DNA of 63,585 bases from a virus. Within the stretch, counting starts at the first letter, position 1. Each line of letters opens with the position of its first letter. A program made the translations under genes and the position numbers. The notes beneath the pieces are model-generated. The model worked only from the letters and a program-made list of their open reading frames with translations, was not told the DNA's origin and searched no databases. Where the stretch lies: IMG/VR virus record IMGVR_UViG_3300033997_000235, positions 1 through 63,585 of that record. The stretch is one strand, 5' to 3'. Of the stretch, positions 11,414 to 37,403 are shown in pieces.

Positions 11414-11428
11414 AACCCTACAGGGGGT
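11414..11428 (-). repeat. Late-region intergenic motif, copy 1 (minus strand ACCCCCTGTAGGGTT)
   Basis: Plus strand AACCCTACAGGGGGT. 62 nt upstream of the giant gene start. Also abuts the -35 of the plus-strand moron promoter. Confidence 0.8.
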
Positions 11429-11469
11429 TACCGATTGCGCACGGCATGTCATAGGGCTATAACGCCAGG

Positions 11470-11805
11470 ATGAAGAAGCTGATCATCACCACCGCACTTC
11501 TGGCCACCTCCAGCCTTGCCAATGCTGGAGACTTCGCCACCTGCCTACTGGATAGCCTGCCTGGACTAGAAAATGACCTTGCGGCATCAGCCGCCGTGAC
11601 CGTCTGCAAGACTGAGCACCCAGGCGGTCTTGAGTCCGTACCGGCCGGATCAGGTCGGGGTATGCTGTCGTTCAAGTCAGGCGCCGAGTGCGCCCTGAAC
11701 AAGTCAGGGAACACCAGAAGCCGGGATGCGGCCTACATGATCAGGGCAGCCTGCAACAGGCTTTACGACGAACCCAACTTCTTCGATCAGTTCGACGGCT
11801 CTTAA
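11470..11805 (+). CDS. Secreted (periplasmic) 111-aa protein with four Cys and a C-terminal NFFDQFDGS; opposite-strand moron inside the late operon
   Basis: Sec signal peptide MKKLIITTALLATSSLANA/GD. Candidate promoter TTGCGC-N17-TATAAC at 11435-11463. Atypical codons (cta, gga, aga, agg). Confidence 0.75.
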   Translation: MKKLIITTALLATSSLANAGDFATCLLDSLPGLENDLAASAAVTVCKTEHPGGLESVPAGSGRGMLSFKSGAECALNKSGNTRSRDAAYMIRAACNRLYDEPNFFDQFDGS

Positions 11806-13880
11806 CCCGCCTGACCGCCAAGGATTCTCGCCGCTGCCCCCTGCCCGTACTTCTGATCAAACTCAGCAGCTCGGCTTGGATTTGAGCGCAGGGCCTGCAC
11901 GGCCGATGCTGGCGGCGCCGCGACTTGGGTGCTAGCCGTAGATACGGGCTGACCGGTTGTCACGTCGATAACCTGCTTGCCAACGATAGGCCTTCCCATT
12001 TCATCCCGATCCAGAATCACATCCTGCGTGATGTAGCGATCCTTCGCCTGCGTGGCCAGGACGTTGTAAGCCTGCCGTGCCGCATTGCGTTGCTCTTCAC
12101 TGATGTTCGGATCAGATATCTGCGCGCGCAATTGCTCGAGGCGCTGGCGATCCTGCATACCCAGGTTACCCTCGGCGATCTGCTGTTGCAGGCGCTGTTG
12201 GTTCAGTTGTTCGGTGCCCATGCGCTGAACTTCCGCGCCACGACGAACTGAAGCATCTGCGGACTCGTTCTGCAGGCGCTGCTGCATGGCATCCAACCTG
12301 GTGTTCTGGATTTCAGCCAGGGTTGGAGCTCGCGAACTGTCGCGAACTACGGTCACACGACCGCCTCCCTCGCCGATCTGACCGCGCCGGCTTTCCTGAA
12401 TCGTCTGCGCACGGATATCGTTGGCACGCCCAAATCGATCAAGAGCCAGTTGCGAATCGCCCGGCTGGCCAACCGAAAGCGTGCCGCGGCCGTTTCCAAC
12501 AGCGCCGACTGGGCTGCTACTCTCTGCCCCGGCTACAACGGCCTGGTCGTTGGTAAACTCTGGCACACCACTGCCATCGACTCGTCCGGCAATCCCATCG
12601 CCTGCCTGGCTCCAGTTGGCACTGGTACGCCCAGGCATGCCAAGGCGCGGCTGTTCGGTCTGTACCTGCTCAGCTTGCGGGCGCGGCATTCCAAGGCGCG
12701 GCTGCTCTGCCGGCTGCTCCTGGCGCGGCTGCACACCAAGCGCGCTACGCGCGGCCTCAGCCACGCCTGAAAGGGCGCCGCCGACGCGATCCACACCAGC
12801 CTGGAACTGGCCAACTGCCTCGTCACGGTAGCGGGTAGAGCCACCAGGCAGAGTTGCCGGGTCACCACCGGCAATGTAGGCCGCAGCATTGCGAATAGCG
12901 TCTTGGCCAGCAGCAATCGGGGTACGTACAGCGCCGGCCACCGCCTGGGCTGCGCCAAGCGGAACGTCCAGCGCACGGGACCCGGCCGAAGAGGCTTGCC
13001 CGGCAGACTGACGGGTAGGCATGCCGAGGCGTGGCTGCTCTGGCTGCATCAGGGTGGTGGTCGGCATGCGCACGCCGAAGCCACGGCGCGGCTCCTCCTC
13101 GACCAATCCGCCATCGGCGTATCCCCTCACCGGCTCTTGCGCTTCGTCCGCCGCTACGCTTCCGGCAACACTTGCTCCAGTTCCAAGTGCAGTCTTACCA
13201 AGCGAAGGAACTGCCCCTGCTGCGGTTTTCAGCGTTGGCGCAACAGCCCTTACTGCACCGAAGATTGGCACGCTCTGCAGTGCAGCCACCCCCATTCCAG
13301 GCAAGTCACCAGAACCAGCAGCATCGTGCATAGCACCCAAAGCAGAGCCGAAGCCGGTCATAGGGTTAAGCGCTCGAGTACCGCGCTCCAGCAAGGTCGG
13401 ATTACCCGCCTCAAAGTTCGCGTTACTTTCTGACCAGTACTCGCCAACTCCATCCAATGGATTTAAGGCCACTCCACCATCAGCAAAGAACTGGCGAGGC
13501 CCGTCCGCCTGCTGCCCTTTCGCCGCAGCCATCACTGCCTTGGTCAGGCCGAAGCCCTTCTGTTGGTGAGTGGCGTTCTTCAGTTGGTCGAGTACCACAG
13601 CGCCCAGCGCATGCACGTCCTGGGGTGGCATTTCGTACTCACCATTGCTGACGGCAACCGGCACCTGCTTTCCAGGCATACCTAGACGCGGCTGCTCCTG
13701 AGCCGGAGCCCCCTGGCCATTACGCCCAGGCATGCCCAGACCAAGCTGAGCCGTGGTGTCGGCCGGCAGAATGTAAGTCCCTTCCGGAACGTCCTTCTTG
13801 ATCGAATCGGACGTGCCAGTACCAGGCCCTTCGATCAATCCGCCATTGGCGGCATGCTTGCGCTTGGGAAGCCCGTACAT
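11802..13880 (-). CDS. Virion-associated protein with GPGTGTSDS N-terminal motif and repeated (E)QPRLGMP motifs; candidate internal or ejection protein
   Basis: 692 aa. GGGAGA RBS. PRLGMP occurs 4 times plus variants; ADGG(V/L) repeats; C-terminal Q-rich coiled coil. Confidence 0.6.
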   Translation of the reverse strand: MYGLPKRKHAANGGLIEGPGTGTSDSIKKDVPEGTYILPADTTAQLGLGMPGRNGQGAPAQEQPRLGMPGKQVPVAVSNGEYEMPPQDVHALGAVVLDQLKNATHQQKGFGLTKAVMAAAKGQQADGPRQFFADGGVALNPLDGVGEYWSESNANFEAGNPTLLERGTRALNPMTGFGSALGAMHDAAGSGDLPGMGVAALQSVPIFGAVRAVAPTLKTAAGAVPSLGKTALGTGASVAGSVAADEAQEPVRGYADGGLVEEEPRRGFGVRMPTTTLMQPEQPRLGMPTRQSAGQASSAGSRALDVPLGAAQAVAGAVRTPIAAGQDAIRNAAAYIAGGDPATLPGGSTRYRDEAVGQFQAGVDRVGGALSGVAEAARSALGVQPRQEQPAEQPRLGMPRPQAEQVQTEQPRLGMPGRTSANWSQAGDGIAGRVDGSGVPEFTNDQAVVAGAESSSPVGAVGNGRGTLSVGQPGDSQLALDRFGRANDIRAQTIQESRRGQIGEGGGRVTVVRDSSRAPTLAEIQNTRLDAMQQRLQNESADASVRRGAEVQRMGTEQLNQQRLQQQIAEGNLGMQDRQRLEQLRAQISDPNISEEQRNAARQAYNVLATQAKDRYITQDVILDRDEMGRPIVGKQVIDVTTGQPVSTASTQVAAPPASAVQALRSNPSRAAEFDQKYGQGAAARILGGQAG

Positions 13881-13935
13881 TGCCTATCTCCCATTGATGA
13901 TGCTGAATTGTTCACCCCAGTTGCCAATCCAGCCA

Positions 13936-13950
13936 AACCCTACAGGGGGC
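13936..13950 (-). repeat. Late-region intergenic motif, copy 2
   Basis: Plus strand AACCCTACAGGGGGC. Abuts the stop codon of 13951..14835 and lies 56 nt upstream of start 13880. Confidence 0.8.
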
Positions 13951-14835
13951 CTACGCCAACTCACTGGCATAGATGTAGTCCGTCCAGAACGTATCCCTTG
14001 GCGGCGCAGGCGCGAGCGGGCCGAAGCCGAGCCCGTCAACGAACAGGCCGATCGGGTGGTCTTCTTGAGCCACCTGGTTCTGCACAAGCAGGCCACCCAC
14101 ACTGATAGAGAATGCGATCTGCGACACCCGTAGAGTTGGGTCTGGAATATTCAATGCACGACACGTCATCACCTGCCCCGCTTCACGCACTGCAGGTTCC
14201 AGCGTACTCGCCCAGGAATGAGCCGTACCGTCTATGCCACGCATGTAGAGAAGGGTTGCGGACAGAAATCCGCCACTGTCGACACCGGTAAACGGAGGCG
14301 TTGGGCCTGGCACCGGAACTGGCATCGCGCTCATTTCCGCGAACGGCACAACCGGTGTCAGCACAGGCGTCGGGTTGAATCGCATGAACACAAAACCACC
14401 AAGCGCCTCACCAACCGCAGCCGGACGCTGAGCGTCTTCGAACTGGATTACGTGTACGGTGCCGTTGTTCTGCACGAACAAACCCATGCTCTGGAAGGTA
14501 ACGATCATCCCTTGCGTGAAGTAGATGGGCCGAGGGTCCCATGATCCGCCATGAGGCACATTAATTGAGTAGATCGAGTCACCCGTAGCCGAGCCGTACA
14601 ATGACTCAACGACGTCAACTCTGCGCACCCCTGGCGATACCTCCTGCCAGTCCATCACCACTAAATAGGCTCGATCTGCAATGAGAAGCGCGCCGATCTT
14701 GTTGGAAAACTCATAGTTCGGGTTGTTATTCCAACCGAACACAAAATCAACGATATCGCCCTGCCCTACGATATCCGGCTGGTACGAGAGCCCTGTCAAA
14801 GTCAACAAACTGCGAGCGTTGATGATCGTGTTCAT
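13951..14835 (-). CDS. Virion or tail-module protein of unknown function (294 aa)
   Basis: ORF in the late-operon frame, tightly packed with its neighbours. No signature recognised. Confidence 0.65.
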   Translation of the reverse strand: MNTIINARSLLTLTGLSYQPDIVGQGDIVDFVFGWNNNPNYEFSNKIGALLIADRAYLVVMDWQEVSPGVRRVDVVESLYGSATGDSIYSINVPHGGSWDPRPIYFTQGMIVTFQSMGLFVQNNGTVHVIQFEDAQRPAAVGEALGGFVFMRFNPTPVLTPVVPFAEMSAMPVPVPGPTPPFTGVDSGGFLSATLLYMRGIDGTAHSWASTLEPAVREAGQVMTCRALNIPDPTLRVSQIAFSISVGGLLVQNQVAQEDHPIGLFVDGLGFGPLAPAPPRDTFWTDYIYASELA

Positions 14836-36965: not shown

Positions 36966-36994
36966 CGCAGGCTATGGCTGGCAAGGGTTTGGGC

Positions 36995-37030
36995 AGAGAC
37001 AAGAAAGCCCGCACTCGGCGGGCTTTCTCT
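36995..37030 (-). terminator. Intrinsic terminator-like hairpin upstream of terS (minus strand)
   Basis: 11-bp stem AGAAAGCCCGC-CGAGT-GCGGGCTTTCT followed by TGTCTCT. Confidence 0.6.
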
Positions 37031-37041
37031 GCATCGGCTGG

Positions 37042-37320
37042 TCAGGCGCTCGATCGCGCCCAGTGCAGCACCTGATCGTTCGTGCGGTTGAACACCATGC
37101 CGGCACTGGCGATGCGCATGTCACTGCGCAATGCGGGGCTTTGCTTGCTCTCCAGGCTGCGAGGCTGCATCACCTCGGCCAGGTTGCGCTTGGCCTCGGC
37201 CGCAATGTGCTGGTAAGCGTAGGCCTTGAAGGCCAGGTGGTCGGCCGGTACCGGTGCAGCGAACACCAGGCCGCTGGACAGATACAGGATCGCGATAACG
37301 CACAGCAGGACTTTCTTCAT
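37042..37320 (-). CDS. Small secreted protein (92 aa)
   Basis: Start at MKKVLLCVIAILYLSSGLVFA/AP (signal peptide). The track ORF extends upstream without support. Confidence 0.6.
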   Translation of the reverse strand: MKKVLLCVIAILYLSSGLVFAAPVPADHLAFKAYAYQHIAAEAKRNLAEVMQPRSLESKQSPALRSDMRIASAGMVFNRTNDQVLHWARSSA

Positions 37321-37388
37321 CTTCGGACGCCTCGACAGGTTGAGGTAGTTGGCAGTCCGAATGTTCCATCTGCGCCTTGGTCGGCTCA

Positions 37389-37403
37389 AACCCTACAAGG
37401 GGT
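37389..37403 (-). repeat. Late-region intergenic motif, copy 7 (variant)
   Basis: Plus strand AACCCTACAAGGGGT. Overlaps the stop codon of 37393..37674 and lies 69 nt upstream of start 37320. Confidence 0.7.

Follow-up and report, generated by a model that had tools for sequence, protein, structure and literature searches.

A late-strand repeat as the putative upstream half of seven late promoters in an F116-like Pseudomonas prophage

In phage Mu, the late promoters Plys, PI, PP and Pmom are activated by C and the middle promoter by Mor. The late promoters of P2, 186 and P4 are activated by the zinc-finger proteins Ogr, B and delta, those of P1 depend on Lpa (gp10), and T4 gp55 reads a single late promoter element. 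In the RinA/ArpU/Ltr systems of Gram-positive temperate phages, the activator gene lies immediately upstream of terS, and an activator-dependent promoter just before terS controls the packaging, morphogenesis and lysis genes (PMC3152322). Here we analyzed a repeated motif in the late region of an F116-like (Hollowayvirus-type) Pseudomonas prophage, which makes up the window, that is, the whole stretch of 63,585 nucleotides under study.

The motif AACCCTACAGGGGGT was searched on both strands of the whole window with up to three mismatches. Exactly seven matches were found, all on the plus strand (11414, 13936, 21662, 27452, 32105, 36951 and 37389; copies 1 to 7), whereas shuffled sequence gave 0.71 on average and never more than 3. 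The late genes terS, terL, portal, capsid, holin and giant protein are all on the minus strand, so every copy is oriented with late transcription. All seven copies lie in short non-coding gaps, which occupy ~3% of the late region (counted from the ORF list), and copies 2, 4 and 7 abut or overlap the stop codons of ORFs 13951-14835, 27466-28122 and 37393-37674. The early and immunity regions of the window contained no copy in the same search. These results bear out an earlier note on this DNA, which had described seven copies in one orientation, confined to late-operon gaps, touching an upstream stop codon in three cases and missing from the early and immunity regions. Its count of six exact copies did not hold, as only four of the seven are exact: copies 2 and 6 are mismatched at the last plus-strand base (C and G, respectively, not T), and copy 7 has a single internal mismatch.

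On the transcribed (minus) strand, the conserved box ACCCCCTGTAGGG is followed by TTG or TCG within a weak -35, a 17-nt spacer and a -10-like hexamer, nAnAnT. The earlier note had seen no consistent -10 element; each copy in fact has an nAnnnT hexamer downstream, at a distance of 22 nt (23 nt in two copies). When 73 distinct instances were picked by the 15-mer alone, from both the window and its relatives, the A at +24 carried 1.9 bits and the T at +28 carried 1.5 bits. The element also has TTG or TCG at 0 to +2 (positions 0-5 being the -35-like hexamer) and the 17-nt spacer, and favours C-A at +34 to +36. An nAnnnT at +23 to +28, held at fixed spacing, and a weak -35 beside the box are what an activator-dependent promoter would show, and by its spacing the arrangement would be of sigma-70 type with a conserved box at about -48 to -36.

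When only non-identical relatives were used to train a bipartite model, it recovered exactly the seven window copies, and nothing else on either strand of the window scored above 8 bits. The downstream part of the model alone scored 8–12 bits in five of the seven copies, compared with a window 99th percentile of 2.8. A scan of the late strand did not find it filled with ordinary sigma-70 promoters. With moderate confidence, we read the motif as the upstream half of seven late promoters that would be read by the host RNA polymerase and probably activated by a phage DNA-binding protein. Binding sites for a late regulator were the first of three roles proposed in the earlier note; that role is the one favoured here, but the sites are best read as complete promoters. 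Some features count against the promoter reading: the -10-like hexamers are weak and contain GC, a 1-nt shift is needed in two window copies, and the box is not clearly symmetric, either as a dyad or as a direct repeat, as the site of a dimeric regulator would be expected to be (its T at -8 is variable and its A at -5 invariant).

Table 1 Predicted late promoters, terminators and candidate activator gene in the window. Scores are those of the bipartite model.
Feature	Coordinates	Strand	Elements	Context
Copy 7 late promoter (predicted)	37353..37403	-	box ACCCCTTGTAGGGTT 37403-37389; -35-like TTGAGC; -10-like GAACAT 37366-37361; score 31.4, downstream part 8.2	predicted start near 37354; small secreted protein (ATG 37320) downstream; box contains TAG, the stop codon of the upstream ORF
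Intrinsic terminator closing copy-7 unit	37000..37030	-	AAAGCCCGC...GCGGGCUUUCUU; region -36 kcal/mol, z = -3.3	~40 nt upstream of copy 6
Copy 6 late promoter (predicted), upstream of terS	36915..36965	-	box CCCCCCTGTAGGGTT 36965-36951; -35-like TCGACA; -10-like AAGACT 36927-36922, flanked by GC-rich inverted repeat GCCCGG-AAAGACT-CCGGGC (36934-36916)	terS ATG 36915, 35 nt past box, without Shine-Dalgarno
Terminator after portal gene	32095..32137	-	3' arm = copy 5 box; 13-bp hairpin and U-run	U-run covers -35 position of copy 5 promoter
Copy 5 late promoter (predicted)	32069..32119	-	box ACCCCCTGTAGGGTT 32119-32105; -10-like GACACT 32082-32077; score 41.0	scaffold-like gene (start 31979), then capsid gene downstream
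Copy 4 late promoter (predicted)	27416..27466	-	box 27466-27452; -10-like TAGCCT 27429-27424	box overlaps TGA stop of upstream ORF; holin and lysis genes (start 27375) downstream
Copy 3 late promoter (predicted)	21626..21676	-	box 21676-21662; -10-like AATACT 21639-21634; score 38.9	upstream of head-closure/tail block (start near 21605)
Copy 2 late promoter (predicted)	13900..13950	-	box GCCCCCTGTAGGGTT 13950-13936; -35-like TTGGCT; -10-like GAACAAT 13913-13907	box directly after TAG stop of upstream ORF; ORF 11802-13880 (phrog_11341) downstream
Copy 1 late promoter (predicted)	11378..11428	-	box 11428-11414; -10-like GAAACT 11391-11386	predicted start near 11379; hairpin TCCCGCTATGGCGGGA and T-run (11386-11371) at predicted 5' end of transcript; gene for 3225-aa polyvalent protein downstream
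Candidate late activator, 210 aa	38480..39112	-		phrog_8117; homologue of F116 gp37

The motif is conserved across the family, as the earlier note had proposed to check: in ~155 related loci the element was almost always on the late strand. The TerL-anchored IMG/VR loci gave 140 late-strand matches and one on the other strand, and the regulator-anchored loci gave 139 and one. In F116 itself, the element precedes terS, gp42, gp58 and the holin gene, and it is also present in Shewanella phage Y11, a phage that is more AT-rich. The motif is retained where terS and TerL have been replaced by unrelated types. Terminator hairpins lie directly upstream of many copies in the window and in relatives, a placement that fits restarts of transcription. 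A literature search, whose range fell short of the 2005 F116 genome paper, found no description of this design (box, -35 and -10-like hexamer), which recurs across a large prophage family, and likewise agreed with the earlier note that no element with the motif sequence has been described.

The best candidate for the late activator is the product of the gene at 38480-39112, which the earlier note had named and which comparative genomics also singled out. The gene is the last widely conserved one of the early-right operon, and, of all early-region genes, its homologue alone stays next to the late module in nearly every relative. There, one motif match was found in 615 kb upstream of the regulator gene and 138 in 656 kb downstream, and the first copy lay within 100 nt of the stop codon of the gene in 19 of 68 loci. 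Two loci with 10 kb of upstream sequence and a TerL 78% identical to that of the window (L009 and L010) have neither gene nor motif, and a different repeat occupies the places where the motif sits in relatives; two shorter loci (L013 and L015) also lack both, and together this joint absence represents only two independent lineages. A further locus (L219) has a primase gene, a homologue of the regulator and a motif copy, but no terminase or portal genes.

The candidate is predicted to fold into a winged helix at its N terminus (aa 7-64), followed by a small beta unit (74-95) and then a long helix (97-147); this predicted fold and the co-occurrence of gene and motif make the protein a candidate for binding the box. 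Pfam gave no family at E ≤ 0.01, PHROGs gave only phrog_8117, whose function is unannotated, NCBIfam gave nothing meaningful, and the best match in the PDB profile search was a generic regulator (E = 0.5). None of these searches, nor Foldseek, revealed homology to the Mor/C, Ogr/delta, RinA/ArpU or Q families. Foldseek returned generic winged-helix matches only, with one weak match to the DnaD N-terminal domain; a protein encoded next to terS could have another role instead, such as in packaging or replication.

Compared with the described systems, the predicted arrangement most resembles parts of several. Mu likewise has several late promoters spread through the late region, each with a poor -35 and an activator site directly upstream of and overlapping it (centred near -43), and expression of its activator gene comes earlier in the lytic cycle, as would that of the candidate here. 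However, the box sequence is unrelated, and the C and Mor sites are dyads whereas the window box is asymmetric. The candidate is a predicted winged-helix protein with a long helix, unlike the Mor family, and since it has no Pfam match at all, it has none to that family. A multi-promoter late regulon in a temperate phage is also found in P2, 186 and P4, and satellites carry their own activator homologue and matching sites; L219 may be comparable. Ogr sites, in contrast, are TGT-N12-ACA dyads centred near -55, and the candidate, with no Pfam match, has no zinc-finger signature.

The RinA/ArpU/Ltr systems share the activator gene (here the candidate) beside terS and a promoter just before terS. 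They have essentially one promoter and a single late operon, whereas at least seven promoters with terminators between them are predicted here; their proteins have no sequence-family match to the candidate, and the hosts here are Pseudomonadota. P1 has many dispersed late promoters with a conserved non-sigma-70 element, a TAnnnT -10 and one responsible phage protein (here the candidate), but in P1 a 9-bp inverted repeat centred near -22 replaces the -35, whereas the box here lies upstream of a residual -35. As in lambda, where Q acts at PR', the regulator gene (again the candidate) closes the early-right operon and directly precedes the late genes. Q systems, however, use one late promoter and read through terminators, whereas here a new promoter copy would follow each terminator, and the Pfam and PHROGs scans found no Q-family protein.

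The terS copy bears on where transcription would start. In 48 distinct terS promoters, the terS ATG lies 34–36 nt past the motif without a Shine-Dalgarno sequence, and terS variants with a 57-nt spacing carry GGAG. This pattern fits a transcription start at about +35, and the terS mRNA is thus predicted to begin at its own ATG, that is, to be leaderless. An alternative that we consider unlikely is that the 15-mer is a core promoter for a phage factor redirecting RNA polymerase, much as gp55 acts in T4, with TAGGGT as the -10 and a start ~7 nt after the motif, so that the second conserved element would be part of the 5' untranslated region. Indeed, TAGGGT matches TAnnnT at its T, A and T positions, and the information content of the motif far exceeds that of the downstream hexamer. 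At terS, moreover, a conserved hairpin immediately ahead of the ATG holds the downstream element in its loop, which could be an RNA feature; this hairpin around the -10 is not explained by a simple promoter model.

Nevertheless, the second element is spaced from the motif and not from the start codons, terS excepted. No long ORF opens less than ~34 nt after the motif, and each of the four apparent starts at +26 is followed by an in-frame ATG at +35. With a start close to the motif, terS would have a 28-nt leader that lacks a Shine-Dalgarno sequence and ends in a strong hairpin abutting the ATG, so its translation should be poor. The would-be -7 T is also less conserved (72–85%) than the next T (99–100%), and Pfam, PHROGs and NCBIfam scans found no sigma-like or polymerase-binding protein among the early-region ORFs covered. 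At the giant gene, the translation start is probably ATG 11352, which is preceded by a GGAGGG Shine-Dalgarno sequence, and not ATG 11379.

The earlier note also raised a processing or stability signal in the RNA, which would divide long late transcripts into segments; we judge such an RNA-level signal, protein-binding sites included, very improbable. Any read-through RNA would contain the motif, a CsrA-like protein is encoded by some relatives including F116, and copy 5 lies within a terminator stem. The terminator after the portal gene is, as had been noticed, a strong one (-17.6 kcal/mol, z = -3.4), and it is supported by a compensatory change among relatives (in L057, CCCCACAG pairs with CTGTGGGG). 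Only copy 5 and its orthologues place the motif in an intrinsic terminator, however; the six other copies have no U-run. Pairing partners differ among the seven copies, and for four of the seven regions folding was not better than in shuffles at z < -1.7. The variants C6 to T and G11 to A arise independently and not as compensating pairs, and neither an Rfam match nor an RNAalifold consensus was found. The exceptions to this lack of shared structure are the copy 5 terminator and the terS-specific hairpin. An RNA signal would also leave unexplained the fixed distance to the -10-like hexamer and the placement after terminators.

Slightly less probable still are stoperator-like roadblocks, at which a lysogen repressor would stop polymerase entering the late genes, as gp71 of L5 does. 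Like the L5 stoperators, the window sites are asymmetric, of similar size (13 bp in L5), placed in short intergenic gaps and in a single orientation to transcription. L5 stoperators, however, have the immunity operator's own sequence and are found in early and late arms alike, neither of which is true here. The immunity operators of the window, AACCGNCGGTT, form separate arrays at 45203-45261 and 46644-46678, with no motif there at up to three mismatches, in agreement with the earlier distinction between the motif and the cI operator. In relatives the motif is confined downstream of the regulator gene, which belongs to the lytic early operon and not to the immunity region, and a roadblock would have no use for a -10-like hexamer coupled to the site at fixed spacing. 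Finally, a host REP-type or mobile intergenic repeat present by chance has a negligible probability although the motif is GC-rich, partly palindromic and intergenic, since a scan for the exact 15-mer in one genome per species (at least 120 stretches) gave, among the matches listed, at most three stretches per genome, at least 23 beside homologues of the late genes of this phage (nearly all with the -10-like hexamer) and otherwise single matches in unrelated taxa, and the strand bias within phages is nearly absolute. The proteobacterial matches listed in that scan neighbour F116-like late genes.

Under the promoter reading, each unit would consist of the 13-nt box, a weak -35 (TTG or TCG plus 3 nt) whose first base is the last T of the 15-mer, the spacer and a weak -10, with transcription starting ~35 nt past the 15-mer. 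The winged-helix protein, which would be made only after induction, would bind the box beside the -35 and recruit or stabilise polymerase in the manner of a class-II activator. As both hexamers are poor, the promoters should stay silent until the phage protein binds. One earlier suggestion had the copies segment a single ~35-kb late transcript, but they are better read as the starts of about seven transcription units. The seven promoters, several of them just after terminators, would split the late region into units for the small secreted protein; terS, terL and portal; the scaffold together with the capsid; lysis and the genes that come after it; the tail; the phrog_11341 protein; and, last, the giant polyvalent protein.

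A search of both strands of the window with up to three mismatches found exactly seven sites for AACCCTACAGGGGGT, all on the + strand, compared with a mean of 0.71 sites and a maximum of 3 in dinucleotide-preserving shuffles. Read along the RNA-like strand, the motif is ACCCCCTGTAGGGTT. The late genes are on the minus strand, and each copy therefore points along late transcription. The earlier note had described a single orientation shared with late transcription, placement in late-operon gaps and contact of three copies with the stop codon of the preceding gene, all of which were confirmed; the late region has few gaps, all of them short, and every copy is located in one. 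Its total of seven sites stood, and its count of six exact copies was slightly off, because copies 2 and 6 differ at the last + strand base and copy 7 differs internally, leaving four exact copies. The motif was also distinct from the cI operator, as the note had stated: the palindromic operators AACCGNCGGTT sit in separate arrays.

Coordinates of the motif copies, terS start codons and main features of the window (motif copies numbered by rising coordinate)
Feature	Position	Strand	-10-like hexamer
Integrase gene	187-1422	+	
3225-aa polyvalent protein gene	1702-11379	-	
Tail, lysis, capsid, portal, terL and terS genes	up to 36915	-	
Early-right operon (cro-like, O-like, P-like, NinB and other genes)	~45200 down to 37400	-	
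cI-like S24/HTH repressor gene	45267-46064	+	
Early-left recombination and methylase operon		+	
Palindromic operator arrays (AACCGNCGGTT)	45203-45261 and 46644-46678		
Motif copy 1	11414		GAAACT
Motif copy 2	13936		GAACAA(T)
Motif copy 3	21662		AATACT
Motif copy 4	27452		TAGCCT
Motif copy 5	32105		GACACT
Motif copy 6	36951		(A)AAGACT
Motif copy 7	37389		GAACAT
terS-opening ATG, window	36915		
terS-opening ATG, related locus L081	4777 (F116 record position 22776)		

To characterize the flanks, 73 distinct instances from the window and related phages, picked on the 15-mer alone (≤2 mismatches), were aligned. An nAnnnT hexamer was found 22 nt downstream of the motif, with conserved A at +24 (1.9 bits) and T at +28 (1.5 bits), positions being counted after the motif on the transcribed strand. 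A -10-like element thus occurs at fixed spacing, contrary to the earlier reading that no consistent one follows the motif. The last T of the 15-mer and the bases that follow it form TTG or TCG, with a 17-nt gap to the hexamer; C-A is preferred from +34 to +36. Judged from sequence, motif and hexamer together are arranged as in a sigma-70 promoter whose -35 and -10 elements are weak, and a strongly conserved 13-nt box lies directly upstream of the putative -35, from about -48 to -36. When trained solely on loci not near-identical to the window, a bipartite model recovered precisely the seven window copies, and no other site on either strand scored above 8 bits. Its downstream part alone scored 8–12 bits in five of the seven copies, against a window-wide 99th percentile of 2.8, and the remaining two needed a 1-nt shift. 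A generic scan found no ordinary sigma-70 promoters beyond chance on the late strand.

An alternative reading was that the motif is an RNA signal segmenting one long late transcript. Copy 5 is indeed the 3' arm of an intrinsic terminator, as had been noticed earlier, with a 13-bp hairpin and then a U-run right after the portal gene (-17.6 kcal/mol, z = -3.4), and in relatives whose motif varies, the upstream arm has changed to compensate (CCCCACAG with CTGTGGGG in the related locus L057). A strong terminator also lies ~40 nt before copy 6, and many relatives have a terminator directly ahead of a copy. This order of terminator and then motif fits a restart of transcription and not marks on one long transcript. 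No fold was shared among the seven copies, which apart from the terminator cases had unrelated folds, the C6-to-T and G11-to-A variants of the motif were not compensatory, and an Rfam scan of the whole window matched no family.

The gene content of the window is that of a prophage. Three copies of AACCGNCGGTT are spaced at 24 bp in the interval that separates the cro-like gene from the cI-like gene, and two further copies, also 24 bp apart, lie ~580 bp past the end of the cI-like gene; the two arrays suggest an OR/OL layout. The last late gene, which encodes the 3225-aa protein with LPD1, LPD3, LPD5, LPD38 and ADP-ribosyltransferase (ART-PolyVal) domains, has its own copy of the putative late promoter. 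A hairpin, TCCCGCTATGGCGGGA then TTTTCTTT (window 11371-11386, - strand), is located at the predicted 5' end of its transcript, upstream of a GGAGGG Shine-Dalgarno sequence and ATG 11352. The related loci L121, L144 and L174 keep the stem, with ATT or ATC in place of the loop ATG, and the hairpin may act as an attenuator or stabilise the 5' end.

The prophage is a member of the F116 group (Hollowayvirus and relatives); F116 is a classic generalised transducing phage of Pseudomonas aeruginosa. Both the motif and its recurring positions were kept in related phages. It was present in the same orientation in IMG/VR relatives gathered through TerL (80 loci, down to 64% identity), where an iterated model gave 140 matches on the late strand and one on the other, and the sites that recurred were immediately upstream of terS, immediately downstream of the portal gene, and upstream of lysis or tail blocks. 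F116 has copies directly after gene 37 and ahead of terS, gp42, gp58 and the holin gene. Across the family the core reads CCCC-T-N-TA-(G/A)-GG-(T/C)-T, with lineage variants including CCCTCTAGGGTT, CCCTATAGGGCT, CTAAGGTTTG and CCTGTGGGGTT, and the C-rich box is retained in Acinetobacter-like prophages and in Shewanella phage Y11, which is richer in AT. In a longest-ORF test, 45 of 70 matches in relatives fell outside ORFs that covered 83% of bases, a lower bound for the intergenic share given that this crude test over-calls coding in GC-rich DNA. Exact 10-mer counts per locus returned mostly coding repeats and origin-like iterons and were informative only for L009/L010, L028 and L034. Tandem 21-22-bp iteron-like repeats in the early regions of two loci (L065 1478-1600, L064 3988-4100) may be replication origins.

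The distribution in bacterial genomes also bears on whether the motif is a host REP-type element, a reading the earlier note had raised against its own proposal. A scan of one genome per species found the exact 15-mer in at least 120 stretches, with no more than three per genome among the matches listed. At least 23 of these stretches lie beside homologues of the late genes of the window phage, nearly all with a -10-like hexamer, in Pseudomonas, Variovorax, Azomonas, Acinetobacter, Ottowia and Rhodoferax; the others among the matches listed were scattered single occurrences in unrelated taxa. With so few stretches per genome among the matches listed, late-gene neighbours and otherwise scattered singles, the motif is not a host REP element. 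Measured against what defines each class, it also failed as a stoperator, as a site of Q antitermination and as a structured RNA. Copy 6 with its flank (36940-36965, - strand) reads TAGGGTTCGACACCCTA, a 5-bp stem with a TTCGACA loop that resembles a tRNA T-arm; this mimic was rejected, and the likeness is probably a coincidence of the -35-like TCGACA, because it is not kept in the distant relatives L006 and L007. N4-type hairpin promoters, Chi-like sites, methylase/restriction sites and a pac site were considered and dropped.

Among nine genes at the early-late junction (37042-41652), only 38480-39112 adjoins the late module in nearly all TerL-anchored loci, where its product is 33% to 95% identical. 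The F116 homologue is gene 37, directly upstream of terS. In 77 further loci gathered through this protein, 139 motif matches were on its strand and one on the other, with one match in 615 kb upstream of its gene and 138 in 656 kb downstream. The first motif copy was <100 nt from its stop codon in 19 of 68 loci, and the motif was kept where terS and TerL were swapped for unrelated types (TerL 25-29% identical). Loci L009 and L010, whose TerL is 78% identical to that of the window and which include 10 kb of upstream sequence, had neither the gene nor the motif, and the shorter loci L013 and L015 also lacked both. L009 and L010, both close structural relatives, have another oriented repeat, GTCACATAGCGTC, whose four copies (in L010 at 6844, 9128, 14790 and 19395) occupy equivalent positions: ahead of the lysis genes and of terS, behind the portal gene, and farther downstream. 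This looks like a swapped late-control system.

The 38480-39112 product matched no Pfam or NCBIfam family, and only phrog_8117 in PHROGs. A search returned 320 homologues, of which the best 120 were named "hypothetical" or "uncharacterized" throughout, with an AbiEi_4 winged-helix domain (PF13338) in three; F116 gp37 and its homologues are likewise annotated "unknown" or "hypothetical". In the AlphaFold model (mean pLDDT 78.8), aa 7-64 form an N-terminal winged helix, accompanied by a small beta unit and a helix of 50 residues. Foldseek against PDB and viral libraries returned generic winged-helix DNA-binding domains only (e.g., DtxR/IdeR and KAT6A WH), and neither these libraries nor a PDB profile search yielded a known late regulator resembling the protein. 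Covariation of regulator and motif specificity was not visible, the core TA[G/A]GGTT and the winged-helix region both being too conserved. We infer that the 38480-39112 product binds the box and activates the promoters. One 10.7-kb locus, L219 (IMGVR_UViG_3300027776_000348), carries a primase gene, a winged-helix homologue and a phrog_11341 gene preceded by its one good promoter copy (3658); homologues of the window terS, TerL and portal were not found in it, and it may be a satellite using the same late control.

At 48 distinct terS promoters, the ATG opening terS lies 34-36 nt after the motif and 6-8 nt past the -10-like hexamer, without a Shine-Dalgarno sequence. This arrangement fits a transcription start at about +35 and predicts a leaderless terS mRNA. 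In all four cases where terS seemed to start at +26, an ATG in the same frame is present at +35; a lineage with 57-nt spacing has GGAG. If transcription starts at about +35, the F116 annotation probably opens terS 75 nt too late, at 22851, which is 25 codons into the same frame. Only at the terS promoter is the -10-like hexamer bracketed by a GC-rich inverted repeat (window 36916-36934, - strand, and loci L001-L080); its stem sequence varies between phages with complementarity retained, and its 3' arm ends at the terS ATG. In per-sequence folding, the more informative approach, 31 of 41 terS promoters had z < -1.5, with a mean of -9.3 kcal/mol compared with -3.3 for 83 other copies. Fixed-column covariation gave moderate support only (65% of cells paired vs 58% in shuffles), and RNAalifold returned no consensus structure across the 41 promoters. 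We speculate that the hairpin hides the ATG in early read-through transcripts, and that terS and terL, which overlaps the terS stop codon, would therefore be translated only from leaderless late RNA.

Multi-promoter late regulons are found in Mu, P2 and P1, under the regulators C, Ogr and Lpa, and the system described here resembles them in this respect. The position of the candidate regulator before terS is like that of the RinA/Ltr activators of Gram-positive phages (PMC3152322). Neither the box nor the candidate protein is related to those of the Mu C, P2 Ogr, P1 Lpa and RinA/Ltr systems. The literature searched, to which the 2005 F116 genome paper did not belong, gave only unrelated matches to the motif, in agreement with the earlier view that no such element had been described, and neither it nor the F116 records described a function for gp37. 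Promoters were not mentioned in the literature found on F116-like phages, and the F116 GenBank record holds CDS features only. Late-gene control of F116 and its many prophage relatives appears to be previously undescribed.

We judge the motif to be real and functional. The likeliest reading is that its copies are a set of activator-dependent late promoters; we consider this full statement reasonably probable, and are more confident that the motif is a promoter element. More tentatively, the gp37-like phrog_8117 winged-helix proteins may be a new family of late activators with a box-driven regulon of at least seven promoters, in which terS is leaderless-only and hairpin-gated. These activators would bind an asymmetric C-rich box beside the -35, drive seven or more promoters and be widespread in temperate podophage-like prophages of Pseudomonadota. 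TerS would be made only from leaderless mRNA starting exactly at the late promoter, and the conserved hairpin would mask the same ATG in read-through early transcripts, such that both transcription and translation would act as gates on packaging.

Leaderless mRNAs are, so far as is known, uncommon in Pseudomonadota, and the predicted leaderless terS with its conserved hairpin would make it possible to test in this group whether DNA packaging is gated at translation. The compact activator-promoter pair, possibly independent of host regulation, could serve in Pseudomonas and related hosts. With the promoter model and the candidate activator, late transcription units would become annotatable in hundreds of prophages, and the model would correct gene starts such as that of F116 terS.
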